This document shows positions 12,166-64,000 of a stretch of 64,000 bases of DNA, in pieces. Position 1 is the first letter of the stretch; every line of letters starts with the position of its first letter. Where the stretch lies: assembly GCA_030697825.1 (NCBI GenBank), contig JAUYOW010000146.1, forward strand, positions 5,978 through 69,977, given 5' to 3'. A model generated the notes under the pieces. That model did not search any database and was not told the DNA's origin. It saw nothing but the letters and a program-made list of their open reading frames with translations. A program made the position numbers and the translations under genes. This stretch comes from Gemmatimonadales bacterium (GTDB lineage: Bacteria > Gemmatimonadota > Gemmatimonadetes > Gemmatimonadales > JACORV01).

Positions 12166-12241
12166 GCTGACGTAGCTCAATCGGTAGAGCAGCTGATTTG
12201 TAATCAGCAGGTTAAGGGTTCGAGTCCCTTCGTCAGCTCCA
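12166..12241 (+). tRNA. tRNA-Thr (anticodon TGT), CCA encoded
   Basis: Cloverleaf folded by hand: acceptor gctgacg/cgtcagc, anticodon arm gctga-tttgtaa-tcagc, T arm aaggg-ttcgagt-ccctt. Confidence 0.9.
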
Positions 12242-12349
12242 GTTAGCCGGGAGGGAGCACGCAGCACCGCAGACCACGCCACCCCGCGTTTCGCGCCGCG
12301 GGGTGGTCTGTTCAGCGGACCAAAAGACGCCAGTGGGATGGGGCGCTGG

Positions 12350-12433
12350 GGTGGGGTGCCGGAGCGGTCAATCGGAGCAGACTGTAAATCTGCCGGCCTT
12401 GCGCCTACGAAGGTTCGAATCCTTCCCCCACCA
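12350..12433 (+). tRNA. tRNA-Tyr (anticodon GTA), long variable arm
   Basis: Acceptor ggtgggg/ccccacc, anticodon arm gcaga-ctgtaaa-tctgc, T arm gaagg-ttcgaat-ccttc. No encoded CCA. Confidence 0.9.
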
Positions 12434-12435
12434 CT

Positions 12436-12508
12436 GCGGGCGTAGCTCAGTTGGTAGAGCGTCAGCCTTCCAAGCTGAGGGTCGCGGGTTCGAGCCCCGT
12501 CGCCCGCT
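12436..12508 (+). tRNA. tRNA-Gly (anticodon TCC)
   Basis: Acceptor gcgggcg/cgcccgc, anticodon arm tcagc-cttccaa-gctga. Confidence 0.9.
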
Positions 12509-12509
12509 C

Positions 12510-12582
<73 letters not shown>

Positions 12583-52406: not shown

Positions 52407-53690
52407 ATGTTCGGTGCGGGCACGCGCTGCCTCGTCGTGGTGGGGGCGCAGTGGGGCGACGAGGGCAAGGGCAAGGTCGTGGACGCGCTGGCCGAGCACG
52501 CCGATCTCGTGGTGCGCTATCAGGGAGGCGCCAACGCGGGGCACACGGTAGACGCGCCCGACGGCGAGTTCGTGCTGCACCAGATCCCCTCCGGCATCCT
52601 GCATCAGGCGACGAAGTGCGTGATCGGCAACGGGGTCGTCCTCGATCCCGAAACGCTGTTTCACGAGATCGACGCGCTCCGCGGGCGTGGCGTGACCGTC
52701 GAGGGCCGGTTGGTGGTCAGCGACCGCGCCCACCTGGTTCTCCCTTACCACAAGCTGCTCGACGCCGAGAGCGCGCGCAGCAAGAAGATCGGCACTACGG
52801 CCCGCGGCATCGGTCCGGCGTACGAGGATAAGTACGGGCGGCGCGGTGTCCGCGTCGGAGACCTGCGGCACCCCGAGATCGTGGCCAAGCTGGTGGAGGC
52901 CGGCGTCCAGCGCGCCAACGACCTGTTGGGGCTGGCGGGGTCGGTGAAGCGCTGCCACGCGGCGGAGATCGTCGCCATGCTGGCAGGTATGGCGCCCCGG
53001 CTGCTGCCGTTCGTGTCCGACGCGGGCAGGCTCGTGACGGACACCCTGAGGGATGGCGGCAACGTCCTGCTCGAGGGCGCGCAAGGCGCTCTCCTCGACG
53101 TGGACCACGGCACCTACCCGTTCGTGACCTCGTCGAGCACCACCGCCGGCGGCGCCGCGGTGGGCGCGGGCATCGGCCCCACGGCGATCGACGCCGTGCT
53201 CGGCGTCGTCAAGGCGTACACGACGCGCGTGGGCAACGGCCCGCTCCCGACCGAGGCGGAGGTGACCGAAGGCGAAAGGCTGCGCACGCTGGGCGGCGAG
53301 TACGGCGCGACTACCGGGCGCCCGCGCCGCTGCGGCTGGTTCGACGCGATGGTGGTGCGCTACTCGGTGCGCGTGAACGGCCTCACCGGGCTCGCGGTGA
53401 CCAAGCTCGACGTCCTCGATTCGTTCGAGCAGCTGTCCGTCTGCACGCACTACCGGCTCGGCGGCGAAACGCTGGACGACCTGCCTGACAACGTCGCGGC
53501 GCTCGCGGAAGTGGAACCGGTGTATGAGCTCCTTCCCGGCTGGCGCCAGCCGACCGGCGAGGCCCGCACGCTCGCCGCCCTTCCCCGGGAGGCCCGCGCC
53601 TACCTCGACCGCCTCGAGGCGCTGGCAGGCGCCCCCATCCGCTACGTGGGCGTGGGCACCAAGCGCGAGCAGCTGATCGAAGTGCAGTGA
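52407..53690 (+). CDS. purA: adenylosuccinate synthase
   Basis: ATG at 52407 after gaggagga. ..VVGAQWGDEGKGKVVD.. and ..GGANAGHTV.. Confidence 0.96.
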   Translation: MFGAGTRCLVVVGAQWGDEGKGKVVDALAEHADLVVRYQGGANAGHTVDAPDGEFVLHQIPSGILHQATKCVIGNGVVLDPETLFHEIDALRGRGVTVEGRLVVSDRAHLVLPYHKLLDAESARSKKIGTTARGIGPAYEDKYGRRGVRVGDLRHPEIVAKLVEAGVQRANDLLGLAGSVKRCHAAEIVAMLAGMAPRLLPFVSDAGRLVTDTLRDGGNVLLEGAQGALLDVDHGTYPFVTSSSTTAGGAAVGAGIGPTAIDAVLGVVKAYTTRVGNGPLPTEAEVTEGERLRTLGGEYGATTGRPRRCGWFDAMVVRYSVRVNGLTGLAVTKLDVLDSFEQLSVCTHYRLGGETLDDLPDNVAALAEVEPVYELLPGWRQPTGEARTLAALPREARAYLDRLEALAGAPIRYVGVGTKREQLIEVQ

Positions 53691-56212
53691 GGGTGCTCTT
53701 GAAGGTGCTGTCGGGAGTCGCCGCGGTCCTCGTCGTCGTGGCCGTGGTGGTCTCGTTGGTTCTCTTCCGCTCGATACCTCCCCTGGACGGCAAAGAGTCG
53801 TTGCCGGCGCTCTGCGCGCCGGTCGAGGTGCTCTGGGACAGCCTCGGCATCCCGCACCTCACGGCAGCGTCGGACGCGGACGCGCTGAAGGCGCTCGGAT
53901 ACCTCCACGCGCGCGATCGGCTGTGGCAGATGGAGACCCTCCGCCGCACCGCCGAGGGGCGGCTGGCCGAAGTGCTGGGACCCGCCGCCCTCGGCCTCGA
54001 CCGGTTCCTGCGCTCGCTCGACATCCCGCGCGCCGCGGCCGCGAGCCTGGGCACGATAGCGCCCGAGGCCCGGGCGCTCGCCGAAGCCTACGTGGCGGGC
54101 GTGAACCAGTGGATCTCCCACCACACGCGGCCACTTCCTCTCGAGTTCCAGCTCTTGCGCTTCGCCCCGGAGCCGTGGACGATGCAGCAGGTGGTCGAGG
54201 TGGCACGGGTGATGTCGTGGGACCTGGTGAGCGCGCGGCTCGAGCTGAACCTCGCGCGGGCGGCGGCGCGCCTGGGCCCGGAACGGGCGCGCGACCTGGT
54301 CCCGCTGTACCCGGACAGCGCGCCGGTCATCCTGGCGCCGGGGACTGCTACGTGGAAAGACGGGCGGCAGACGCGCAGACGCGCAGACGCGCAGTCGGTG
54401 GGCGGGCGGCAGTATTCGGTTGAACGGCAGTGGCTCCCGAGCCACCTGCTCGCCGAGCGGGAGGTCCCGGAGATACCGCCGTTGGCGGCGGAAGTTCTCG
54501 ACGCGGTGACCATGACGCGGGCGTCGAACTCCTGGGTGATCGGATCGTCGCGCTCGCGCTCGGGCAAGCCCATCCTGGCCAACGACCCGCACCTCCGGCT
54601 CAGCGCGCCTTCGCTGTGGTACCTCGCGGTCATCGAGAGCCCTCGCCTGCACGTCGCCGGCGCCACGATCCCCGGCCTGCCGGCCGTGATCATCGGGCAC
54701 AACCGGCGCATCGCCTGGGGGCTCACCAACGGGTCGGTGGACGACGTGGACTACGTGATCGAGCGGCTCTCGGCGGACTCCTCTCGCGTGCTCACGCCTG
54801 ACGGGTGGGCGCCGGTGGAGGTGGTCCGGGACTCGATCCGGGTTCGCGGTCGTCAGGCGGTCCCGTTCACGCTGCGGCGCACGGCGCACGGCCCGATCGT
54901 GGACGAGGCCGCGCCCGACTCGGGCTGGACCCACGCGCCGTCGGACAGCGCCGCGCCCGTGACCGTGCTCGCGATGCGCTGGAACGGGCAGGACCCGAGC
55001 GACGAGCTCACGGCGCTGATCGGCGTGGACCGCGCGGGTTCGTGGACCGACTTCCTCGCCGCCGTCTCCGGGTTCAAATCGCCCGAGCAGAACTGGATCT
55101 ACGCCGACGTGGACGGCAACATCGGGTACACCGCGAGCGGCGCGGTGCCGGTTCGGCGGTCGGGGGTCGGTCTCCTCCCGACACCGGGCTGGACCGACGA
55201 GGGGAGGTGGGAGCGGTACCTGGACTTCGACGAGCTGCCCCGCGCGTTCAATCCGCCCGATGGTTTCATCGTCACCGCGAACAACCGGGTGATAGGCCCC
55301 GAGTACCCGCACTTCCTGGCGCAGGACTGGGACCTCGGCTACCGGGCGGCACGAATCCGGGAGATGCTCGTACCGGGCGGTCCTTTCACCGCCCTGGACG
55401 TTGGACGCATGCAGCTGGACACGGTGGACGTCTTCGCGCGATGGGCCAGGCGCCTAGCCGCGGACGCCGCGGCGACCGCGGGCCGGCAGGACCTGGCTGA
55501 GCGGCTGCGCGCGTGGGACGGCACGATGGGATCCGACCGGACGGAGCCGACGCTCTTCTACGTCTGGTACCGGGATCTCCAGCGCCTTACGTACGAGGAC
55601 GAACTCGGTGGCTATGCGCCTTCGGGGCCACTGCACCGGTGGTTGCGCGCGGGCGGAAGCCCGTGGTTCGACGACATCAGGACGCCCGAACGCGAGGACC
55701 TGGCGGCGCTTTCCGCCCGCGCGATGCGCGAAGCGCTGCCGGTAGCCGAGGGTGTGAAATGGGGCGACGCGCACGTCACCGTGTCACAACACGCCCTCGG
55801 CGGCTTCGGGCCTCTCAACCGCCTGCTCGGCCTGAACCTCGGGCCGGCGCCGCGCGCCGGGTCGCTCTACACCGTGGATGTCGCCGACTTCGGTTCCTTC
55901 GCGCCGCCGTTCGTGAACACCCATGCGGCATCGTTCCGGCAGGTCGTGGATCTGGCGGACGTGGAGGCCGGGCGGATGATCGCGACCACGGGACAGTCGG
56001 GTAACCCGCTGGCGCGGCGATATCGCGACCAGAGCCGGCGGTGGTGGCGGGGGGAGTTGTGGGAGGTGCCGCTGGACCGCGAGCGGGTGGCGGCCGTCGG
56101 CACCCTGCATCTGACACCGCTGTCGCTATCCGCCCTATCCGCTCTATCCGTCTATGGTGTCACTCCCTCCGCGGCGCGCTCCACCAGCTGCGTCTCGACT
56201 AGCCGGCGGTAG
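53687..56212 (+). CDS. penicillin acylase family Ntn-hydrolase (possible acyl-homoserine-lactone/beta-lactam acylase)
   Basis: Signal/TM N-terminus, ..GYLHARDRLWQME.., and the nucleophile context ..TRASNSWVIG.. The last ~20 codons cross a 9-bp tandem repeat and overlap the convergent ABC gene, so the true C-terminus is uncertain. Confidence 0.85.
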   Translation: MRVLLKVLSGVAAVLVVVAVVVSLVLFRSIPPLDGKESLPALCAPVEVLWDSLGIPHLTAASDADALKALGYLHARDRLWQMETLRRTAEGRLAEVLGPAALGLDRFLRSLDIPRAAAASLGTIAPEARALAEAYVAGVNQWISHHTRPLPLEFQLLRFAPEPWTMQQVVEVARVMSWDLVSARLELNLARAAARLGPERARDLVPLYPDSAPVILAPGTATWKDGRQTRRRADAQSVGGRQYSVERQWLPSHLLAEREVPEIPPLAAEVLDAVTMTRASNSWVIGSSRSRSGKPILANDPHLRLSAPSLWYLAVIESPRLHVAGATIPGLPAVIIGHNRRIAWGLTNGSVDDVDYVIERLSADSSRVLTPDGWAPVEVVRDSIRVRGRQAVPFTLRRTAHGPIVDEAAPDSGWTHAPSDSAAPVTVLAMRWNGQDPSDELTALIGVDRAGSWTDFLAAVSGFKSPEQNWIYADVDGNIGYTASGAVPVRRSGVGLLPTPGWTDEGRWERYLDFDELPRAFNPPDGFIVTANNRVIGPEYPHFLAQDWDLGYRAARIREMLVPGGPFTALDVGRMQLDTVDVFARWARRLAADAAATAGRQDLAERLRAWDGTMGSDRTEPTLFYVWYRDLQRLTYEDELGGYAPSGPLHRWLRAGGSPWFDDIRTPEREDLAALSARAMREALPVAEGVKWGDAHVTVSQHALGGFGPLNRLLGLNLGPAPRAGSLYTVDVADFGSFAPPFVNTHAASFRQVVDLADVEAGRMIATTGQSGNPLARRYRDQSRRWWRGELWEVPLDRERVAAVGTLHLTPLSLSALSALSVYGVTPSAARSTSCVSTSRR
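56126..56157 (+). repeat. 3.5 copies of a 9-bp tandem repeat (CTATCCGNC)
   Basis: ctatcc occurs at 56126, 56135 and 56144, and ctatgg at 56152. The array sits at the junction of convergent genes, and the last unit contains the ABC-transporter stop codon. Confidence 0.7.
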
Positions 56213-57921
56213 ACCGCGCTGGTCTCGAGCAGTTCCGCATGCCGGCCGGCGGCCGCAATGCCGCCGCCGTCGAGCACGGCGATCCGGTCGGCCGCGAGCA
56301 CGGTGCTGAGCCGGTGGGCGATGATCAGGGTGATGCCGTCCGGGCGCCCGTAGCGCAAGCCTTCGGCGACCGACCGCTCGGTGGGGCTGTCGAGCGCGCT
56401 GGTCGCTTCGTCGAGAATGAGGATCTGAGGCCGCGTCACGATCGCCCGCGCCAGAGCGAGACGTTGCCTCTGGCCGGCCGAGAGCTTCCCGCCGCGCGGT
56501 CCGACGCGGGTGCGGTAGCCGTCGGGTAGGGAGTGAATGAGCTCGTCCAGTCGGGCCGTCTGCGCGGCCTTCGCGACCGCGGGCGACGGGAGGTCACGGC
56601 CCAGCGAGATGTTCCAGTCGACCGGCTCGTCGAAGACGAAGCAGTCCTCGAACACGACGCCCAGGTTCCGCGCGAGCGACGCCCGCGCCACGCGATCCAG
56701 CGGCACACCGTCTACCAGAATCCTGCCCGACTGCGGGGCCCGCAGGCGGACGAGCAGCTGCGCCAGCGTGCTCTTGCCCGACCCGCTGGCTCCCACCACC
56801 GCGACCACCTCACCGCGCCGGAGCTCGAGATCCAGGCCCCGGAGCACCGGCTCGCCCCCGGCATACCGGAACCCAACCTGCTCCACGCTGATCCGCTCCA
56901 CCGGTGAATCCACCGCTTCGGACCCGTCGCGCTCGCCCGACGCGCGATCGCCCAGGAAGGCGAAGACGTTGAGCGTCGCACCCTCCTGCTCGGCCAGCGC
57001 CGACGCCGCCTCGGTGATGGCGCCGAACTGACCCTGGAGGCGGCGCAGCACGAACCCGAGGGCGAGGACCAGCGGCAGATTCCCGAACAGTTGATCCTGC
57101 CAAACGTTGAGCGCCACCAGCAGCGCGCCCAGGAGCACCACCGCGTAGAGCACTTCGGTCGCGGGCTTCACCGCGCTGCGCCAGCGGTGCAGGCCCATCG
57201 CTTCGCGATAGAGCGTCTGGTTCGTGCGGCGGTGGAGCGCCAACCGCTCCCGGCCGACGTCGTAGGCCTGGATCACGTGGAGCCCAGCGGCATCGTCGAG
57301 CACCAGCCGGCTCGAGTCCTCTTCCGCACGCACCATGAGCACCGAGTAGGCTCGAATCCGGCGGCCCGCGTAGGCGATGACACCGAAGCCGATCGCTCCG
57401 AGGACCGCCGCGGCCAGGCTCAGCCGCCACGACAGCAGCACGAGGGCCCCGCCGTAGACCGCCAGCAGCAGCGCGGCGTTCAGCAGCGCCACGAGCGCGG
57501 AGACCCCGGCGACCACCCGCTCGGTCTGCATCGAGAACAGGTTCACGAGCCTCCCCCCGCCGAGGACGGCCAGGTCCGCGTAGCGGGAGGCGTAGAACGC
57601 CTCCGCCAGTGACTCCCGGAGACGAAGGAGCACGCGCAGCTGGAGCCGGGCCGAGAGGACGCCGTTCAGGTAGCAAGCCGCGGCGCGGAGCAGGACGAGC
57701 GCGCCGATCGCGAGGACGATGAGCTGGAGTCTCTGCTCCGATCCTCGCTCGAAGGACTCGAGGAAGGGAACGAGCAGCGTGACCGAGGCCCCTTCGAGCA
57801 GGACGAGCGCCAGCGAAGTGCCGGCGACCGTCGCCGCGGGCCGCTTGAAGCCCCGGAGCGAGGTGATCACCTCTCGAACGTCTTTCCACCGGGAAGCCAG
57901 ACGCTGCGGCAGTCTCATCAC
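56152..57921 (-). CDS. ABC transporter, fused permease/ATPase (lasso peptide exporter candidate, McjD-like role)
   Basis: Six-TM exporter domain. Walker A GASGSGKST, signature LSAGQRQRLALARA, Walker B ILILDEATSALD. The start overlaps the stop of the upstream kinase gene. Confidence 0.9.
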   Translation of the reverse strand: MMRLPQRLASRWKDVREVITSLRGFKRPAATVAGTSLALVLLEGASVTLLVPFLESFERGSEQRLQLIVLAIGALVLLRAAACYLNGVLSARLQLRVLLRLRESLAEAFYASRYADLAVLGGGRLVNLFSMQTERVVAGVSALVALLNAALLLAVYGGALVLLSWRLSLAAAVLGAIGFGVIAYAGRRIRAYSVLMVRAEEDSSRLVLDDAAGLHVIQAYDVGRERLALHRRTNQTLYREAMGLHRWRSAVKPATEVLYAVVLLGALLVALNVWQDQLFGNLPLVLALGFVLRRLQGQFGAITEAASALAEQEGATLNVFAFLGDRASGERDGSEAVDSPVERISVEQVGFRYAGGEPVLRGLDLELRRGEVVAVVGASGSGKSTLAQLLVRLRAPQSGRILVDGVPLDRVARASLARNLGVVFEDCFVFDEPVDWNISLGRDLPSPAVAKAAQTARLDELIHSLPDGYRTRVGPRGGKLSAGQRQRLALARAIVTRPQILILDEATSALDSPTERSVAEGLRYGRPDGITLIIAHRLSTVLAADRIAVLDGGGIAAAGRHAELLETSAVYRRLVETQLVERAAEGVTP

Positions 57922-58865
57922 GAAAGGTCGGCCAGCACGGCCTCGCAGACGGCGGGGAGCAGGGACAGGCTCCGAGGGTAGCTCAGGCGCTTGACCGGCA
58001 CCGCGGCCACCAGCCGGCTGGCGAACGCGAACTGGTTAGCGAGACGGTCCCGGTCCACCACGATCGTATTGAACGAATTCCGGATCACCTCGAGAAACGC
58101 GTCGCGGGCAGAGAGCCGTTCCAGCTCAATGCGCGCTGCCGGGCGGCGACCCGCGGGCGTCGGCTCGGAGAGGACGTAGAGCGCCCGGAGCGGCGCCCGG
58201 CGACGGGACAGCTGCCCGGCGGCGAGGGGGAAAATCTGCTTGGACGTGCCGTTGTTCAACGGTGTCCCGCCCCGCTCAACGCCCAGCACTCGTCGCGAGA
58301 CGCTCGGGAAGAGCTTGAGCCGGGGCATCCCCGGGTGGACCGCATAGCCCGAGGCCGTCGGCTCGAGCGCCATCAGATCGTCGGTGAGGATCGGGAACCC
58401 CAGGCGCAGGAACGCCGCTCCCAGGGTGGATTTCCCGTACCCGCAGTTCCCGAGAAACGCGATCGCCTCTCCGTCGATGACGACGACCGTCCCGTGCAGC
58501 GGCTCCACGCCGAATAGGAGCAGCGAGAACGACAGCACCTGGCCGAGGAGGTACGTGCTGAAGGATTCCGGGGTGGCTCGCTTAAGCTGATGGTACCTGA
58601 TGTCGCGGCCGTCCGCCGAGACCAGGAACTCGAACAGCCCGGTCCACCGCAGGTACGTCGAACCGGTGCGGAGACGGCGGCAGTAGAACCAGTCGCGGCT
58701 CGGCCGGTCGGTGGTTTCCCGCCGAGCAATTCCCTCGAAGCGGGCCGGTTCCCCGACCCGGAGCCTCACATCCGGTCGCCGCGCCCGCTGAACCCGAGGG
58801 CACGGGAGGACGAGAGGGCTCACGAGCGAGAGCCCGTAGAGCCGATAATGCGCTGTCGACCTCAA
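57918..58865 (-). CDS. HPr kinase-like serine kinase (lasso-peptide tailoring kinase candidate)
   Basis: P-loop FLGNCGYGKSTLGAAF followed by PILTDDL, as in the HprK/P C-terminal domain. The TTG start overlaps the precursor stop (TTGA). Confidence 0.75.
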   Translation of the reverse strand: MRSTAHYRLYGLSLVSPLVLPCPRVQRARRPDVRLRVGEPARFEGIARRETTDRPSRDWFYCRRLRTGSTYLRWTGLFEFLVSADGRDIRYHQLKRATPESFSTYLLGQVLSFSLLLFGVEPLHGTVVVIDGEAIAFLGNCGYGKSTLGAAFLRLGFPILTDDLMALEPTASGYAVHPGMPRLKLFPSVSRRVLGVERGGTPLNNGTSKQIFPLAAGQLSRRRAPLRALYVLSEPTPAGRRPAARIELERLSARDAFLEVIRNSFNTIVVDRDRLANQFAFASRLVAAVPVKRLSYPRSLSLLPAVCEAVLADLS

Positions 58866-59038
58866 GCGTTAGTGCCGCTGGCCTTGGTCTTCGGCTTCCC
58901 ACCACCACCGTCGGCCGCGCTGCCGCCCTTAACTCTTGTCAGCGCGCTGATGTCGCCATGCACGGTAAGTTCCGGTGAACGATACGGCTTCTTTTTCCCG
59001 GTGCTCCGCTGGGACTGGCCTTTCTTCCCCTTGTTCAT
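58862..59038 (-). CDS. lasso peptide precursor (58 aa), not in the ORF track
   Basis: Codon-by-codon hand translation gives MNKGKKGQSQRSTGKKKPYRSPELTVHGDISALTRVKGGSAADGGGGKPKTKASGTNA. Residues 19-35 match the lasso leader motif YxxPxLx3Gx5Tx. ATGA overlap with the cyclase stop and TTGA overlap with the kinase start. Confidence 0.8.
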   Translation of the reverse strand: MNKGKKGQSQRSTGKKKPYRSPELTVHGDISALTRVKGGSAADGGGGKPKTKASGTNA

Positions 59039-60993
59039 ACAGTGCTCTCCGAGAGAGGGGTTGGGGGCCGGGCCGGAATTGCGCGCTCCCCGCCCAAGAA
59101 TACCTCAAGCCACACTTCCAAGGCAAACAGATCGGTGAGATCCCAGGTGCCGAGGCAGTCCGGACCCTCGAGCTCCGCGGCGAGGCCGGGAAGCGCGGCC
59201 GCCAGCCGACGCTCGTCAAGGTACCCCAGGCGAGCCGCCAACGAGCCTTGCGACAGCCGAGCGCAGACCTGCCCCAGGTCCCGGCCAATCCCACTGTTCG
59301 CGGCGGCCGTGAAGTCTGCCTTCCACGTTCGAGCGCGCAGCGGCTCGGGGAGGATGCCCCCCATCGCTTCCCGCAGCAGCGCCCGGGGAACGCCGTCCCG
59401 GTTCTGGATTTCTCCCGGCGCAGCCATGAGGAACGCGATGAGGTCACGATCCAGGAACGGGAAGGCCGCGTCCAGCCCGTGCAGCGCGGCGATCTTGTTG
59501 TTCCACTCCATGCAGTGCACGTGATACTTGGACCGGGCTTCCAGATACAGCGATCTCGCGTGGACGGAGTGGAAGCCGTCTCCGAACCACACGGGGCGGT
59601 TTGCGAACCTGAGCGCCCGGCGGCGGAAGGAATCCGAGAACCACGGCCTGGGTCGCTCCGGGCGGGAGATCATTCGGCGCAGCCACTTGAACAGCGGGGC
59701 CGCCGCACGCGGGACATAGTGCCGGGCGACATCGAGCACGAGCCGCCGCCTGAGCACCAGCGTCTCTTCCGGCCCGAAGAACCGCTGGTAGGTCCGGGTG
59801 TGTCGCTGGATCTGTCCGAAATCCAGCCGCCGGAAGAGATCCGCCAGATACGCGGCCGAAAACAGCATCTGGTCGCCCCAGTGCCCCGAGAGCAGCACCC
59901 GCGCGCCGGCCTCTCGGGCCCGAACATGTACTTCGCGGGTCACTCCCCAGAAGTAGTCCATAAAGGGCGCCTCGATGGCCCGCACCTGGTCCTCGGCGCC
60001 CCGGACCACACCGAGCAGAGGCTCGATGGGAATTCGCCCGACCGATACGCCGTACGCCTGCTCGATCTCACGCAGAAAACGCTGCTCGTCGGCCGCGGTG
60101 CCCTCGGCGCCCACGTAGGATATCCCGATCACGCCGGGAGCCGCGGCCCGTCCAGCGCGCCGAAGGGTTTCCGCCTGGCAGAAGATGGAGGATGAATCCA
60201 GGCCCCCGCTCACCGAAACGGCCACCGGGTGAACGGCACGCGTCCGACGCCGCACCGCTTCCGCGAACCGCTCGCGGAATGCTTCGGCGTATTCGCCGAA
60301 CGAGTTCAGGCGGAGCGTGCGGCCCCGGTCGAAATCCCAGTACCGCCGGGCCATCAACCGTTCGGGCGTCACTACGACGAGATGCGCCGGCACGACCGCG
60401 GAGATGCCCGTGAAGCAGGTGATGTCCTGGCGATCGACCGGCCGCGAAGCCAGGAGCAGGTAGTCGGCGAGGCCCTCGTCGTCGGGACGCGCCGGTATCT
60501 CCGGGTGCGCCAGCAACGCCTTGATTTCGGAGGCGAACGCACCCAGCCGGTCGCTGCGGAAGTAGTAGAGGGGGCGAACTCCGATCGGGTCGCGCACCAG
60601 TAGCAGGCGTCGCTGTCGCTCGTCGAAGACCGCCAGCGCGAAATCGCCGTTCAAGCGTCCGGGGAACCGCTCCCCCCAAGCCTCGTACGCCGCGAGCACG
60701 CACGCGGCGTCGCTGACCGTCGGGGGCAGTCGCAGCGCGCCAAGCAGCTCGTCGCGATTGTCGAGCCGGCCGTCCATGACCAGCATGGCGCCGCTGCGAC
60801 CCACGGGCGGCTGGACCTCGCCGGTCTCCTCGGGGGTCACCCACAGGTGCTGCCACGCGAAGCCAGCCGGGCCGGCCACCCGCCGGCCCTCGCCGTCGGG
60901 CCCGCGGTGGCGGAGCGCGGCACTCATGCGGGCCAGCAGCGCATCCTCCGCCGGCCGCGCATCGAGGTTGAACACTCCGACGATTCCGCTCAT
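59035..60993 (-). CDS. asparagine synthetase-like lasso peptide cyclase (C protein)
   Basis: The N-terminus is MSGIVG, with Ser replacing the glutaminase Cys of AsnB. PP-loop SVSGGLDSSS. 652 aa. Cluster context. Confidence 0.85.
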   Translation of the reverse strand: MSGIVGVFNLDARPAEDALLARMSAALRHRGPDGEGRRVAGPAGFAWQHLWVTPEETGEVQPPVGRSGAMLVMDGRLDNRDELLGALRLPPTVSDAACVLAAYEAWGERFPGRLNGDFALAVFDERQRRLLLVRDPIGVRPLYYFRSDRLGAFASEIKALLAHPEIPARPDDEGLADYLLLASRPVDRQDITCFTGISAVVPAHLVVVTPERLMARRYWDFDRGRTLRLNSFGEYAEAFRERFAEAVRRRTRAVHPVAVSVSGGLDSSSIFCQAETLRRAGRAAAPGVIGISYVGAEGTAADEQRFLREIEQAYGVSVGRIPIEPLLGVVRGAEDQVRAIEAPFMDYFWGVTREVHVRAREAGARVLLSGHWGDQMLFSAAYLADLFRRLDFGQIQRHTRTYQRFFGPEETLVLRRRLVLDVARHYVPRAAAPLFKWLRRMISRPERPRPWFSDSFRRRALRFANRPVWFGDGFHSVHARSLYLEARSKYHVHCMEWNNKIAALHGLDAAFPFLDRDLIAFLMAAPGEIQNRDGVPRALLREAMGGILPEPLRARTWKADFTAAANSGIGRDLGQVCARLSQGSLAARLGYLDERRLAAALPGLAAELEGPDCLGTWDLTDLFALEVWLEVFLGGERAIPARPPTPLSESTV

Positions 60994-61009
60994 AGATTAC
61001 ATTATAACA
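60994..61009 (-). promoter_or_regulatory. extended -10 promoter (TGTTATAAT) placed to give a leaderless cyclase mRNA; AT-rich divergent control region
   Basis: The minus strand reads tgt-TATAAT-gtaatct-ATG, so the -10 box ends 7 nt before the ATG at 60993. The surrounding 60994-61014 is conspicuously AT-rich in a GC-rich genome. A TATAAC on the + strand (61003-61008) faces the PqqD-like gene. Confidence 0.4.
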
Positions 61010-61039
61010 GATACTCCGACGCGCGAGCCAAGAGCCTCT

Positions 61040-61351
61040 ATGACTGCCCGCAACATTCCGGACTCGGCCACCGTCGTCGCGGCCGGGGACCTGCTCGCCA
61101 GCGAATTCGGCGCCGAGCTGGTGATCCTCAACCTGCGGGACGGCGTGTACTACGGGATGGAGGACGTCGGCGCGCGCGTCTGGAGCCTCTTGCAACGACC
61201 CGTCACGGTCTCCGCCATCCGCGAGACGCTGGTCGCGGAATACGACGTCGAGCCGGCCCGCTGCGGGCGGGACGTGCGGGCACTGCTCCAGGATCTGGCC
61301 GCGCGCGCCCTGATCGAGGTCCGGGAGAGCGGTGATGGCGCTGTGGCGTAA
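61040..61351 (+). CDS. PqqD-family RiPP recognition element (lasso B1 protein)
   Basis: ATG at 61040 inside track ORF 60758..61351. ..GAELVILNLRDGVYYGMEDVGARVWSLLQRPVTVSAIRETLVAEYDV.. is the typical PqqD pattern. Confidence 0.85.
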   Translation: MTARNIPDSATVVAAGDLLASEFGAELVILNLRDGVYYGMEDVGARVWSLLQRPVTVSAIRETLVAEYDVEPARCGRDVRALLQDLAARALIEVRESGDGAVA

Positions 61352-61799
61352 GCTTCGCACCCTGAGCGCCGCCGACCGCCGCCTCCTCGCGGAAGCGGGG
61401 CTGCTGCTCGTGCTCACCCGGATCGGGCTCTGGCTCCTTCCCTACCCGAAGCTCCGGCGAGTGCTGGACCGGGCCCACCCTTCGGGGCGGGAACCGCCCC
61501 GCGAGTTCCCCAATCGCGTCTCCTGGGCGGTCACCGCCGTCGCGCGCAGGCTTCCGGGAATGACCTGCCTGGTTCAGAGTCTCACCGCACACGCCCTGCT
61601 GCACCGCCGGGGATATCGCGCCGATCTGCGCATCGGCGTCCATGAGCGCGCCAGCCACGCCGCGAGACCCCTCGAGGCCCATGCCTGGGTCGAGTGTGAG
61701 GGCCGCGTCGTGGTGGGGAAGGTCCAGAACCTGGCCGACTACACGGTTCTGACCCCGACCGCGCCGCCAGCTTCTCCCGCCACGCCAGACCCCTCATGA
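61335..61799 (+). CDS. transglutaminase-like lasso leader peptidase (B2 protein)
   Basis: Catalytic Cys context PGMTCLVQSLTAHALL and His context LEAHAWVECEG. It overlaps the B1 3' end (GTG 61332 is an alternative start). Confidence 0.85.
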   Translation: MALWRKLRTLSAADRRLLAEAGLLLVLTRIGLWLLPYPKLRRVLDRAHPSGREPPREFPNRVSWAVTAVARRLPGMTCLVQSLTAHALLHRRGYRADLRIGVHERASHAARPLEAHAWVECEGRVVVGKVQNLADYTVLTPTAPPASPATPDPS

Positions 61800-62935
61800 C
61801 CGCGGTGCTGCCCGCACACCTGGCCGACGGTCTCGCGGCGGTGCTCCGCGGCGAACGGGTCTCCTGGCGCTCGCTCGGCGTGGAACCGGCCGATCTGCTC
61901 GCGGTCTGTGCCGAGGAAGATCTCACCGGCCTGGTGCATCATCAGCTGGGCAACCTACCGGAAATCGGCTGGCCGCAGAGCCTCCGCGACAGCCTGACGC
62001 GCGAAGCCCGAGCGGGAGCGACGCGGGAGCTCCTCCGTCGCAGAGAACTGGTCACGGTGCTCGACGCCCTCGCGGCGCGAGATATCCACCCGATCCTGCT
62101 GAAGGGCACGCCGCTCGCGTACACGGTCTACGAGGCCCCGAGCCTCCGGCCCCGCAGCGACACCGACCTTCTGATATCGCGGGAGCAGACCGATACCGTC
62201 CGCCGCGTCATGACTGGGATCGGCTACTCGGCCACGAACTACTGCGACGGCGAGTTCCTGTTTTGCCAGTTTGAGCTTGGAAAAGAGGACGCGTTCGGCG
62301 TCGGTCACGCCTTCGATTTCCACTGGAAGATCAGCACCCAGTCCGCCTTCGCCGATCTCCTCAGCTATGACGAGCTCTCAGGTGACGCGACGCCCGTCCC
62401 CGCGCTCGGCGCCCACGCGCGCACCGCCGGAGCCGTCCACGCGCTGCTCCTGGCCTGCGTTCATCCGGTGATGCACCACCGAAACGTCGAGCGGCTCGTC
62501 TGGATCTACGACATCCACCTGCTCGCTGCACGGCTCTCGCGCGCCGAGTTCGACCGCCTCGCGGAGCTGGCAGTGCGCAAGGGCGTCGCCGCGATCTGTG
62601 CGCACCAGTTGGCGCTCGCCCGCTCGCGGCTCGGCACCCCCGTGCCCGACGAGGTGATCGCCGCCCTTGCCGCGCCCGGGCGTGAGGCCGAGCGATCGGC
62701 TTCCTACCTGGAGCCTGAGCGGCGGTGGAACGACGAGCTCCTGTCGAATGTCCGGGGATTGCCCCGCTGGACCGATCGCCTCCGCCTGTTGAAGGAAGTC
62801 GCGTTTCCCGCGCCAGGCTACATGCTCCGGGCCTACGGGTTGGACGGAGCCGCCTTCGGAAGCGCCCTGCTCCCCGCCCTCTACGTCCACCGCGGCGTGC
62901 GGGGCATCTGGAAAGTGTTGCGCAACCGCAAATAG
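61796..62935 (+). CDS. uncharacterised nucleotidyltransferase family protein (NTP_transf_5-like)
   Basis: ..PILLKGTPLAYTVYEAPSLRPRSDTDLLISREQTDTVRRVMTGIGY.. matches my memory of this family. ATGA overlap with B2. Confidence 0.7.
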   Translation: MTAVLPAHLADGLAAVLRGERVSWRSLGVEPADLLAVCAEEDLTGLVHHQLGNLPEIGWPQSLRDSLTREARAGATRELLRRRELVTVLDALAARDIHPILLKGTPLAYTVYEAPSLRPRSDTDLLISREQTDTVRRVMTGIGYSATNYCDGEFLFCQFELGKEDAFGVGHAFDFHWKISTQSAFADLLSYDELSGDATPVPALGAHARTAGAVHALLLACVHPVMHHRNVERLVWIYDIHLLAARLSRAEFDRLAELAVRKGVAAICAHQLALARSRLGTPVPDEVIAALAAPGREAERSASYLEPERRWNDELLSNVRGLPRWTDRLRLLKEVAFPAPGYMLRAYGLDGAAFGSALLPALYVHRGVRGIWKVLRNRK

Positions 62936-63109
62936 CCCTGCCCGGCGAGCCCGCTCGCCGACCCGGTCGATTGCCGCCGCGACCGTGACAAAACCCGCTA
63001 TTCCCGGTCATAGAGGCGATGGGCATGCGATCGTGTCTTTCGGGCTGATCCTCGGCGAACGTCCTTGGCCCGAATAGTTGGAACGGCACCAGTGGAGAAA
63101 CTCCGAATC

Positions 63110-63132
63110 GGCGCCGGTTCAGCGCCGGCGCC
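63110..63132. terminator. GC hairpin downstream of the BY-kinase gene
   Basis: 8-bp stem ggcgccgg / ccggcgcc with a 7-nt loop, 8 nt beyond the stop at 63140-63142. Confidence 0.35.
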
Positions 63133-63139
63133 CGCCGTG

Positions 63140-64000
63140 CTAGAAGAGGTGGGCGATCCGCTCGCGGAGGGCCGACAGCGGCCCGCGGCCCGTGGGCTGG
63201 TCCTTGCGGTAGTAGTAGTTGTAGTACTGGTCGCGCGTCTGCTGCACGCCGTTCAAGACCGAGCCGGCGACGCGGGCCTGGACGCGGCGCAACTGGCCGA
63301 GCGCGCGCTGGGCGGCGACCTCCTCCGTCTCGCCGGAGCGCAGGACCAGGATGACGGCGTCGGCCGAGGCGCCGAGCACGGCCGCGTCGGTCACGGCGAG
63401 CGTGGGCGGCAAGTCGAAGATCACCGTGTCATACTGGGTGCGCAGTTGCTCCAGGAGGCGGTGCATCGCCGCCGAGCCGAGCAGCTCCGACGGGTTCGGC
63501 GGCAGCGTGCCGGCCGGCAGGATATCGAGCTTCGGGATCACGTTGGGCCTGATGGCCTCGCGCAGCTGCGCGTTGCCGACCAGCACGTCCGTGAGCCCCG
63601 GCTCCTGCACCAGGTTGAAGGCGCGGTGAATCTGGGGACGGCGCAGGTCCGCGTCCACCAGGAGCGTCGTGGTGCCTTGCTGCGCGAGCGTGACCGCCAG
63701 GTTCGCCGCGGTCGTGCTCTTTCCCTCGCCCGGTCCCGGGCTGGTGGCACAGATGAGCTGTAGCGCCCGCTGTTCGGCATTCACGAAGGTGACGTTGGTG
63801 CGGAGCGCCCGGTAAGCCTCGCTGGACGGATCGTCGGGGCTGGCCAGCGACACCAGGTGGATCGCGCCTCGGCGTCGACCGTCCTTGCGGAGGCCACCGG
63901 CCGAGCGTGTCTCGAGCGGGATCAGGCCGAGGACCGGTATCTCCAGCGCGCGCTCGACGTCCGCCGCGGTCTTGATCGTCTGGTCCAGGTACTCGAGGAA
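63140..64000 (-). CDS. polysaccharide-biosynthesis tyrosine autokinase (BY-kinase / Wzc C-terminal domain), partial; N-terminal part lies beyond the right window edge
   Basis: Walker A SPGPGEGKST, Walker A' LLVDADLRRP, Walker B VIFDLPP, C-terminal Tyr cluster DQYYNYYYRKD. The frame stays open upstream of the track's GTG (63853) to position 64000 (..FLEYLDQTIKTAADVERALEIPVLGLIP..). Confidence 0.9.
   Translation of the reverse strand, partial: FLEYLDQTIKTAADVERALEIPVLGLIPLETRSAGGLRKDGRRRGAIHLVSLASPDDPSSEAYRALRTNVTFVNAEQRALQLICATSPGPGEGKSTTAANLAVTLAQQGTTTLLVDADLRRPQIHRAFNLVQEPGLTDVLVGNAQLREAIRPNVIPKLDILPAGTLPPNPSELLGSAAMHRLLEQLRTQYDTVIFDLPPTLAVTDAAVLGASADAVILVLRSGETEEVAAQRALGQLRRVQARVAGSVLNGVQQTRDQYYNYYYRKDQPTGRGPLSALRERIAHLF

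Follow-up and report, generated by a model that had tools for sequence, protein, structure and literature searches.

What do a kinase and a nucleotidyltransferase-fold protein contribute to a lasso peptide, and on which residue do they act? The question is raised by a seven-gene cluster at positions 56152-62935 of the window, the 64,000-nucleotide stretch of DNA analysed here. Judged from its sequence, it is a split-B lasso peptide gene cluster of the paeninodin type, from a Gemmatimonadales-like soil bacterium that has not been cultured. Its kinase (K) and its nucleotidyltransferase-fold protein (N) are the already-known tailoring pair of paeninodin-type clusters. The product probably carries a two-step modification, in which a residue is phosphorylated and the phosphate is then decorated.

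The cluster is divided between two divergent operons. Genes on the minus strand run in the order C-A-K-D. An Asn-synthetase-like lasso cyclase (C, 59035..60993; PF00733, PF13537 and NF033535, E 1.9e-105) comes first, followed by a 58-aa lasso precursor (A, 58862..59038; NF033528, E 7e-7; NF033521, E 4e-4), an HprK-like lasso-precursor kinase of 315 aa with a TTG start (K, 57918..58865) and, as the last gene, an ABC exporter with fused permease and ATPase (D, 56152..57921; PF00664 and PF00005). The plus-strand operon, B1-B2-N, begins with a PqqD-type RiPP recognition element (B1, 61040..61351; PF05402, E 1.4e-18; NF033536, 68 bits). Next is a transglutaminase-like leader peptidase (B2, 61332..61799; PF13471; NF033537, E 2.6e-30 and 105 bits with a cut-off of 33), which starts at GTG 61332 or ATG 61335 and overlaps the end of B1. 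The split-B lasso enzymes B1, B2 and C are encoded together. The operon closes with a 379-aa PF14907 protein (N, 61796..62935). Start and stop codons overlap by four nucleotides at all C-A-K-D junctions (ATGA at C/A, TTGA at A/K, and GTGA at K/D, where the GTG start of D overlaps the stop codon of K) and at the B2/N junction (ATGA, 61796-61799), which couples N translationally to B2.

An AT-rich region of 46 bp separates C from B1 (60994..61039) and presumably holds a bidirectional promoter. We infer this function only, because a scan of positions 55900-63300 for sigma-70 consensus sequences and terminators gave no match above chance. When the entire window was scanned for Rfam families and tRNAs, the sole results were four tRNAs at 12.1-12.6 kb; the cluster gave nothing. 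This layout bears out an earlier note on the locus, which had named an HprK-like kinase and an NTP_transf_5-like protein, placed the kinase between precursor and exporter in one of two divergent operons, and coupled N to B2 through an ATGA overlap. It had also reported that a sulfotransferase is absent, and domain profile searches agree, having found no such domain in the seven cluster genes or in either flanking gene.

The kinase is recognized by its catalytic residues, its homology and its predicted fold. Against HPr-kinase models K scores weakly (PF07475, 16.2 bits with a cut-off of 33.3; TIGR04352, 34.5 bits with a cut-off of 200). However, PF07475 is a poor test for the lasso-kinase subfamily, because an orthologue of the pseudomycoidin kinase PsmK also falls just under the cut-off (32.4 bits). 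This orthologue is the kinase from a pseudomycoidin-type Bacillus cluster with a B2 that shares 98% identity with PsmB2, and K is 25% identical to it over 306 aa (E 4e-19). The catalytic motif of K, H...G..G.GKS...DD, is complete (H124, G139, G142, G144, K145, S146, D162 and D163), with spacing identical to that of H148-G163-G166-G168-K169-S170-D186-D187 in the lasso kinase BsfK. Seven of the eight residues do not vary among 16 homologues; the eighth, G142, shows conservation of at least 90% (alignments A3 and A4). In Foldseek searches, the AlphaFold model of K (pLDDT 88.7) matches structures of PEPCK (1e-7) and HprK/P (4e-6).

N matches PF14907 (NTP_transf_5) with 131 bits (E 6.8e-38, cut-off 31.2). 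The N protein of a Bacillus cluster resembling psm falls in the same family (196 bits), as do the K-adjacent N of locus L130 and an N encoded in an exopolysaccharide (EPS) operon, in locus L065. N is a distant homologue of PsmN (18% identity; hhalign probability 85%, E 6e-6), and its Asp122 and Asp124, invariant in alignment A1, align with the essential Asp134 and Asp136 of PsmN. In pseudomycoidin, whose C-terminal Ser is phosphorylated, deletion of psmN abolishes hexose adducts of +162 and +324 Da on that residue; these also require PsmK, and a PsmN variant with D134A/D136A has no activity (PMC6993621). PsmN has been known since 2019, from genetic evidence, to be needed for the PsmK-derived phosphate to acquire one or two hexoses (PMC6993621). 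The earlier note held that this nucleotidyltransferase has no established role. That holds for its chemistry and substrate, the literature reporting no in vitro activity of PsmN (PMC11912497), but not for its genetic requirement in hexose addition. By analogy with PsmN, the group added by N in the window may be a hexose. We offer this assignment tentatively and with less than even confidence; at only 18% identity, the donor and product of N could differ from those of PsmN.

The predicted structure of N admits another chemistry. Its model (pLDDT 87.4) adopts an NTase fold and lies nearest to MenT1, ANT(2'')-Ia and LnuA in a fold search, whereas a profile search against PDB sequences gave no meaningful match (E 0.49). 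All three of these enzymes transfer NMP, and a glycosyltransferase motif is absent from N. The protein could thus be a true nucleotidyltransferase that transfers AMP or UMP, either onto the phosphate or straight onto a hydroxyl, with the pseudomycoidin hexose arising through host-dependent follow-up chemistry. The pseudomycoidin authors (PMC6993621) and a later review left the nucleotidylation option open. We regard it as quite unlikely, given that the only species seen on the pseudomycoidin phosphate were those of +162 and +324 Da and that nucleotidylated species were not reported (PMC6993621). A literature search found no nucleotidylated lasso peptides.

Among the closest known systems is the psm cluster of Bacillus pseudomycoides DSM 12442 (PMC6993621). 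All seven gene types of the window cluster (C, A, K, B1, B2, N and D) recur there, with a PF14907 N directly after B2, and with the same catalytic Asp pair in N and DD motif in K. The two differ in that the psm genes form a single operon in a host from the Bacillota. The bsf cluster of Bradymonas sediminis FA350 (PMC10368454) also encodes A, B1, B2, C, D, K and N without a sulfotransferase; the function of BsfN was not observed. Clusters for linear polyphosphorylated peptides (lpp) in Bacillota, described in 2026 (PMC13381572), have neither a cyclase nor B2. A SipW-like signal peptidase removes the leader, and the product is linear. In the paeninodin (pade) system and with ThcoK and SyanK, an HprK-like kinase acts on the precursor ahead of lasso formation, by phosphorylation or polyphosphorylation. 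An N gene is lacking in the pade cluster (PMC6993621). Lasso clusters that carry a sulfotransferase along with K and a nucleotidyltransferase are mentioned in a review (PMC8498205). The suggestion that the present locus is a simpler system for studying N is therefore not upheld, because psm, bsf and lpp also combine K with N in the absence of a sulfotransferase, come from culturable bacteria and are already under study. Evidence for the role of PF14907 enzymes in lasso and related RiPP clusters is genetic and from a single system. The window is not uniquely simple, but its clade offers three testable constraints.

The first is a sharply defined candidate acceptor. In the precursor, leader residues 1-35 include Y19-R-S-P22-E-L24, a YxxPxL motif. 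By the rule that this motif spans positions -17 to -12 (PMC10368454), the core starts at V36 and comprises residues 36-58, VKGGSAADGGGGKPKTKASGTNA. The NF033528 score of the precursor, 29.1, is under the cut-off of 33. The features expected of a lasso precursor are present: YxxPxL at -17 to -12, Thr (Thr34) at -2 and, within the expected range of 7-9 for Asp or Glu, an Asp at core position 8 that is the sole acidic residue of the core. Besides Thr16, hydroxyl residues of the core are Ser5, Ser19 and Thr21.

Both pseudomycoidin and paeninodin are phosphorylated on a C-terminal Ser. This textbook site does not apply to the window precursor, because its C-terminus (...SGTNA) ends in Ala. Across its family the C-terminal Ser was ruled out as the acceptor, since only 2 of 81 distinct cores end in Ser. 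Sites can also move among lasso-type kinases, as BsfK and LppK both phosphorylate a non-C-terminal Ser3; BsfK acts on the linear precursor with the assistance of B1 (PMC10368454). The BsfK target lies inside the ring of a peptide with Ile at leader position -2, whereas in the window precursor core position 3 is Gly, leader position -2 is Thr, and a conserved hydroxyl lies in the tail. That hydroxyl belongs to a P-x-[S/T] motif found 6-9 (about 7) residues past the ring Asp or Glu in all 81 distinct cores of the clade. This shared tail motif, which is unlike both known phosphorylation sites, is new here. The hydroxyl residue is Thr in 71 cores and Ser in 10, and the residue after it is Arg or Lys in 70 and Phe or Trp in 9. 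Several related tails, including ones that end in RK, KV or KNANPNQ, have no further Ser or Thr past the motif.

Because the motif is universal in these cores and a C-terminal Ser is so rare, we predict that the phospho-acceptor is the internal Thr16 of the core (precursor residue 51; codon ACC at 58886..58888, minus strand; motif K-P-K-T-K), a site we hold to be somewhat better than an even bet. The replacement of Thr by Ser in ten cores indicates that a hydroxyl, rather than a side-chain shape, is conserved. K might instead act on Ser19, Thr21 or ring Ser5, leaving P-x-T-[R/K/F/W] to serve as a steric lock or a target-binding motif. The lasso-kinase sites characterized so far, C-terminal Ser and Ser3, would agree with this, as would the bulky residue that always follows the conserved Thr, which is typical for a lasso plug. 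We judge it rather unlikely, because the other hydroxyl positions are not conserved among cores, ring positions vary, some cores offer no Ser or Thr beyond the motif, and Ser is the only residue that substitutes for Thr. Conserved Thr and bulky neighbour could also be viewed as a structural plug pair instead of an acceptor site. Precursors ending in HFT[S/N] belong to a second family, separate from that of the window, found in N-linked Acidobacteriota loci (L011, L045, L049, L051, L053, L055, L060 and L071).

The second constraint is the recurrent association of N with B2. The earlier note had made conservation of N beside B2 in related clusters a test of its reading. The reading survives this test: among well-flanked N-anchored genome loci (5 kb or more on both sides) with an N at least 43% identical, 30 of 32 contain both K and C. 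N immediately follows B2 in 24 loci and K in 14. For metagenomes, K was scanned with a 10-sequence alignment, since the 16-sequence alignment was too diverse. N occurs in 13 of the 15 K-anchored loci whose flanks reach 3 kb or more on both sides, and in 7 of 7 where they reach 8 kb or more. N genes beside B2, as well as B2-N fusions, have been reported earlier (PMC8498205). Full-length B2-N fusions are seen here in P0010, P0041, P0087 and P0100 (L077), and the argument rests on these four; fusions in L022, L036 and L037 call for caution because of frameshifts in long-read MAGs. An apparent K-N fusion in L038, also from a long-read MAG, was discarded because its translation has frameshifted stretches. 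The recurrent coupling and fusion of N with B2 suggest that N works on a leader-bearing peptide.

The third constraint is genomic context. Next to N, and convergent with it, the window encodes a Wzc-like polysaccharide tyrosine autokinase (63140..64000, minus strand; PF13614 and ParA). The gene is incomplete at the window end and matches residues 506-770 of a 789-aa homologue in L075 with 75% identity. The same neighbour is common to L001, L002, L075 and L079; we treat it as conserved context and not as an established component of the system. When tblastn was used to search for EPS markers (Wzc-like kinase, Wzy_C, Bac_transf and GT4 glycosyltransferases), at least one was found within 10 kb in 36 of 71 N-anchored loci. 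Lasso clusters with N are often embedded in EPS loci in Acidobacteriota, which is a new observation. Comparable embedding in capsular polysaccharide loci was recently noted for the lpp clusters of Bacilli (PMC13381572), and the psm cluster adjoins polysaccharide genes that include a tyrosine autokinase. Such repeated embedding in three phyla points to sugar nucleotides as donors or to glycans as partners.

This context could also mean that N is mainly an EPS-pathway enzyme that acts on sugars, sugar nucleotides or lipid-linked glycans, leaves the peptide untouched, and is found near lasso genes only through their embedding. The frequency of EPS markers near N fits this explanation. So do distant N homologues inside EPS operons, in the order Bac_transf, FAD-oxidoreductase, N, Wzy_C, Wzc (L061, L065, L044, L058, L059 and L064), where lasso genes are 6-9 kb off or beyond the contig. 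In addition, deletion of lppN caused no change in a heterologous host, and LppN is without an observed function (PMC13381572). However, hexose adducts on the pseudomycoidin peptide need PsmN in E. coli, outside any EPS locus (PMC6993621), and N is overlapped with B2 in the window and fused to it elsewhere. Clusters of the Gemmatimonadales type have only the lone Wzc-like neighbour amid housekeeping genes, and lasso genes accompany N in 25 of 25 EPS-marked, well-flanked N-anchored loci. An EPS enzyme that ignores the peptide is therefore the least probable of the alternatives weighed here.

A pathway with phosphorylation followed by decoration can be proposed from features read directly in the sequence, namely the gene identities, the intact catalytic residues of K and N, the overlap coupling, the conserved pairing of K with N, and the invariant tail hydroxyl. 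B1 would bind the YxxPxL leader of the precursor. K, with the help of B1 and ATP, would then phosphorylate a tail hydroxyl of the still-linear peptide, most likely core Thr16 within P-x-[S/T]-[R/K]. N, which is translationally and probably also physically coupled to B2, would extend the phosphate. By analogy with PsmN, it might add one or two hexoses to give a phosphodiester-linked glycan. B2 would cleave after Arg35, C would close the Val1-Asp8 ring, and D would export the product. We infer both the order of the steps and the action of N on a leader-bearing peptide.

A bolder version, which we consider improbable, has K marking the invariant tail hydroxyl about 7 residues past the ring, at the point where threading of the tail would occur, and N joining its phosphate to a sugar from the surrounding EPS locus, such that the phosphoglycan acts as a steric lock for a tail without an aromatic plug. 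If so, N would be a peptide-phosphate:glycan coupling enzyme of NTase fold, with chemistry loosely like that of LicD or FKRP. In the exporter-less, EPS-embedded clusters of Acidobacteriota, the peptide might then be linked to polysaccharide or prime it. Exporter D is confined to Gemmatimonadales-type relatives, occurring in 4 of 71 N-anchored and 22 of 80 K-anchored loci.

A compact lasso peptide cluster occupies 56152-62935, in DNA of about 70% G+C, and all of its genes can be assigned by Pfam and NCBIfam. A minus-strand operon encodes the cyclase C (59035-60993), the 58-amino acid precursor A (58862-59038), the kinase K that is the subject of study here (57918-58865) and the ABC exporter D (56152-57921). 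Start and stop codons overlap by 4 nt at the C/A (ATGA), A/K (TTGA) and K/D (GTGA) junctions. A 46-bp AT-rich gap separates these genes from a plus-strand operon for the PqqD-type recognition element B1 (61040-61351), the leader peptidase B2 (61332-61799) and the nucleotidyltransferase N (61796-62935). An earlier note described a kinase and a nucleotidyltransferase split between two operons, with B2 and N coupled by an ATGA overlap and with no sulfotransferase. This feature is real and was correctly identified. The overlap is found at 61796-61799, and Pfam and NCBIfam assign no sulfotransferase among the cluster genes.

K falls under the cut-offs of PF07475 (16 bits, Pfam) and TIGR04352 (34 bits, NCBIfam). 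Its assignment as a kinase is backed by three independent tests: homology, catalytic motif and fold match. The kinase of a Bacillus cluster resembling the pseudomycoidin (psm) cluster is 25% identical to K over 306 residues (E 4e-19); that cluster has a B2 sharing 98% identity with PsmB2 and a precursor nearly the same as PsmA. The catalytic-motif spacing of BsfK, from the bsf cluster of Bradymonas sediminis, is reproduced in K by H124, G139, G142, G144, K145, S146, D162 and D163. All of these except G142 are invariant in a 16-sequence alignment, and G142 is conserved in at least 90% of sequences in two other kinase alignments. For the AlphaFold model of K (pLDDT 88.7), the structural matches are PEP carboxykinases of the ATP-dependent kind and the catalytic domains of HprK/P. 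A TTG codon overlapping the precursor stop codon is the preferred start, because the N-terminal YRLYGL segment is conserved. Public gene calls of close homologues (P0241-P0244, P0251) often specify 283 amino acids, starting about 32 residues downstream and losing this segment.

N is a clear member of PF14907 (131 bits), as are the other N genes scanned, from the psm-like cluster (196 bits), a K-adjacent locus (L130, 203 bits) and an exopolysaccharide (EPS) operon (L065, 125 bits). N shares only 18% identity with the PsmN orthologue (pairwise E 2e-4, profile E 6e-6). Residues D134 and D136 of PsmN, whose double mutation abolishes activity (PMC6993621), align with the invariant D122-T-D124 of N. 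The N model (pLDDT 87.4) is a Pol-beta-type nucleotidyltransferase that is structurally closest to MenT1, ANT(2'')-Ia and LnuA and matches FKRP more weakly.

Published work on the psm and bsf clusters and on the linear polyphosphorylated peptide (lpp) clusters of Bacillota makes the earlier statement that N has no established role outdated, at least as regards the genetic requirement for PsmN. In 2019, the C-terminal Ser of pseudomycoidin was found to be polyphosphorylated by PsmK, without which the peptide appears only unmodified, and the one or two hexoses on the phosphate require PsmN (PMC6993621). The alternative that N is a true nucleotidyl-adding enzyme, as its fold might suggest, is unlikely. 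Later papers stress that no in vitro activity of PsmN has been reported and that the choice of linear versus lasso substrate is unsettled (PMC11912497, PMC8498205). The bsf cluster has seven gene types identical to those of the cluster in the window; BsfK, helped by B1, phosphorylates core Ser3, and BsfN has no known function (PMC10368454). For paeninodin-like clusters, a 2026 paper regards K and N as 'typical secondary modification enzymes'; it also reports polyphosphorylated peptides that are linear and are produced with this enzyme pair, LppN being silent in a heterologous host (PMC13381572). Systems with K and N but without a sulfotransferase thus already exist in culturable organisms, and the simpler system proposed in the earlier note is not unique to the window.

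Genome loci anchored on N number 71, mostly from Gemmatimonadales and Vicinamibacterales/Acidobacteriota MAGs. K and C are both present in 41 of the 45 with at least 5 kb on each side, and in 30 of the 32 such loci whose N is at least 43% identical to that of the window. Immediately upstream of N, on the same strand, lies B2 in 24 loci and K in 14. Among 80 metagenome loci anchored on K, N occurs in 13/15 that are flanked by 3 kb or more on each side and in 7/7 flanked by 8 kb or more. A third layout, B1-B2-C-A-K-N, emerged from this second scan; its N shares only 24-34% identity with the window protein. Full-length in-frame B2-N fusions come from several sources (P0010, P0041, P0087 and P0100, the last from short-read assembly L077). 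Both such fusions and the placement of N between B2 and D had been described in 2016, with a review in 2021 (PMC8498205). The counts and fusions found here therefore speak against the refuting possibility raised in the earlier note, that N is not conserved next to B2 in related clusters. One apparent K-N fusion was rejected as a frameshift artefact.

By the YxxPxL rule (PMC10368454), the leader ends at R35 and T34 occupies position -2. The resulting core is VKGGSAADGGGGKPKTKASGTNA, and its only possible ring acceptor is D8. The peptide ends in Ala, so a paeninodin-type site is impossible. In 81 distinct cores pooled from both scans, P-x-[S/T] is present in every one, 6-9 residues (mostly 7) past the ring Asp/Glu. 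Thr supplies the hydroxyl in 71 cores and Ser in the other 10; R/K follows in 70 and F/W in 9. C-terminal Ser occurs in only 2/81, several tails have no further Ser/Thr after the motif, and no second conserved hydroxyl position exists across the 81 cores. Since K is conserved throughout these loci with its catalytic residues intact, the invariant hydroxyl, which is Thr16 in the window (codon 58886-58888), is judged from sequence, with moderate confidence, the best candidate phospho-acceptor. That K modifies some other residue is unlikely. Thr16-type P-x-[S/T] sites would constitute a predicted third acceptor class.

A second precursor family is found in distant Acidobacteriota loci (L011, L045, L049, L051, L053, L055, L060, L071), with cores ending ...GHPN[K/R/M]HFT[S/N] and N located 2-4 kb downstream of the cyclase. 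The C-terminal residue is almost always Ser (HFTN in L011), and the HFTS-ending precursors probably use the classical C-terminal Ser site.

Most likely, B1 would present the leader-bearing precursor, K would then phosphorylate Thr16, and N, coupled to B2, would decorate the phosphate, with hexose by analogy to PsmN. B2 and C would then mature the lasso for export by D. The precursor tail has no aromatic residue, so a bulky phospho-adduct adjoining Lys17 could act as a lock, as earlier speculated for pseudomycoidin (PMC6993621).

The cluster has housekeeping genes and a penicillin-amidase gene to one side and a Wzc-like tyrosine autokinase (63140-64000, minus strand) to the other, an arrangement that is syntenic in Gemmatimonadales relatives. 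For Acidobacteriota, EPS markers (Wzc, Wzy_C, Bac_transf or several GT4 glycosyltransferases) lie within 10 kb in 36/71 N-anchored loci. In L077 the lasso genes sit mid-EPS locus, and polysaccharide genes also flank the Bacillus psm-like locus. In Bacilli, the clusters are known to lie within capsular polysaccharide loci, and the EPS link, published only for that group (PMC13381572), is extended here to other phyla. This association underlies the reading that N joins the peptide phosphate to an EPS-locus sugar, which is improbable. It might also suggest that N is purely an EPS-pathway enzyme, which is unlikely.

Clusters with K and N occur next to or inside EPS loci in Gemmatimonadales, Acidobacteriota and Bacillus (window, L072, L075, L077, L001-L071). 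Distant PF14907 homologues (34-40% identical) in L061, L065, L044, L058, L059 and L064 lie inside an EPS operon ordered Bac_transf, FAD-oxidoreductase, N, Wzy_C, Wzc, with lasso genes 6-9 kb off or past the contig end.

A dedicated ABC exporter like that at 56152-57921 occurs in only 4/71 N-anchored and 22/80 K-anchored loci, so no exporter is seen within 10 kb in most Acidobacteriota clusters. Some Acidobacteriota loci have two cyclase-like genes: L004/L076 (4585-6594, 6926-8863), L006, L012, L013, L019, L024, L029, L033 and L034. One in L076 (669 amino acids) has no Pfam hit on record, and L004 carries two tandem precursor genes. The penicillin-amidase (Ntn-hydrolase) gene (53687-56212, plus strand) is convergent with the exporter gene, overlapping its 3' end by 61 nt, and its synteny holds in L001, L002 and L075, all of them Gemmatimonadales relatives. 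Unrelated to the lasso finding are four tRNA genes at 12166-12582 (plus strand; Thr-TGT, Tyr-GTA, Gly-TCC, Thr-GGT) and, further along the window, SecY and other housekeeping genes.
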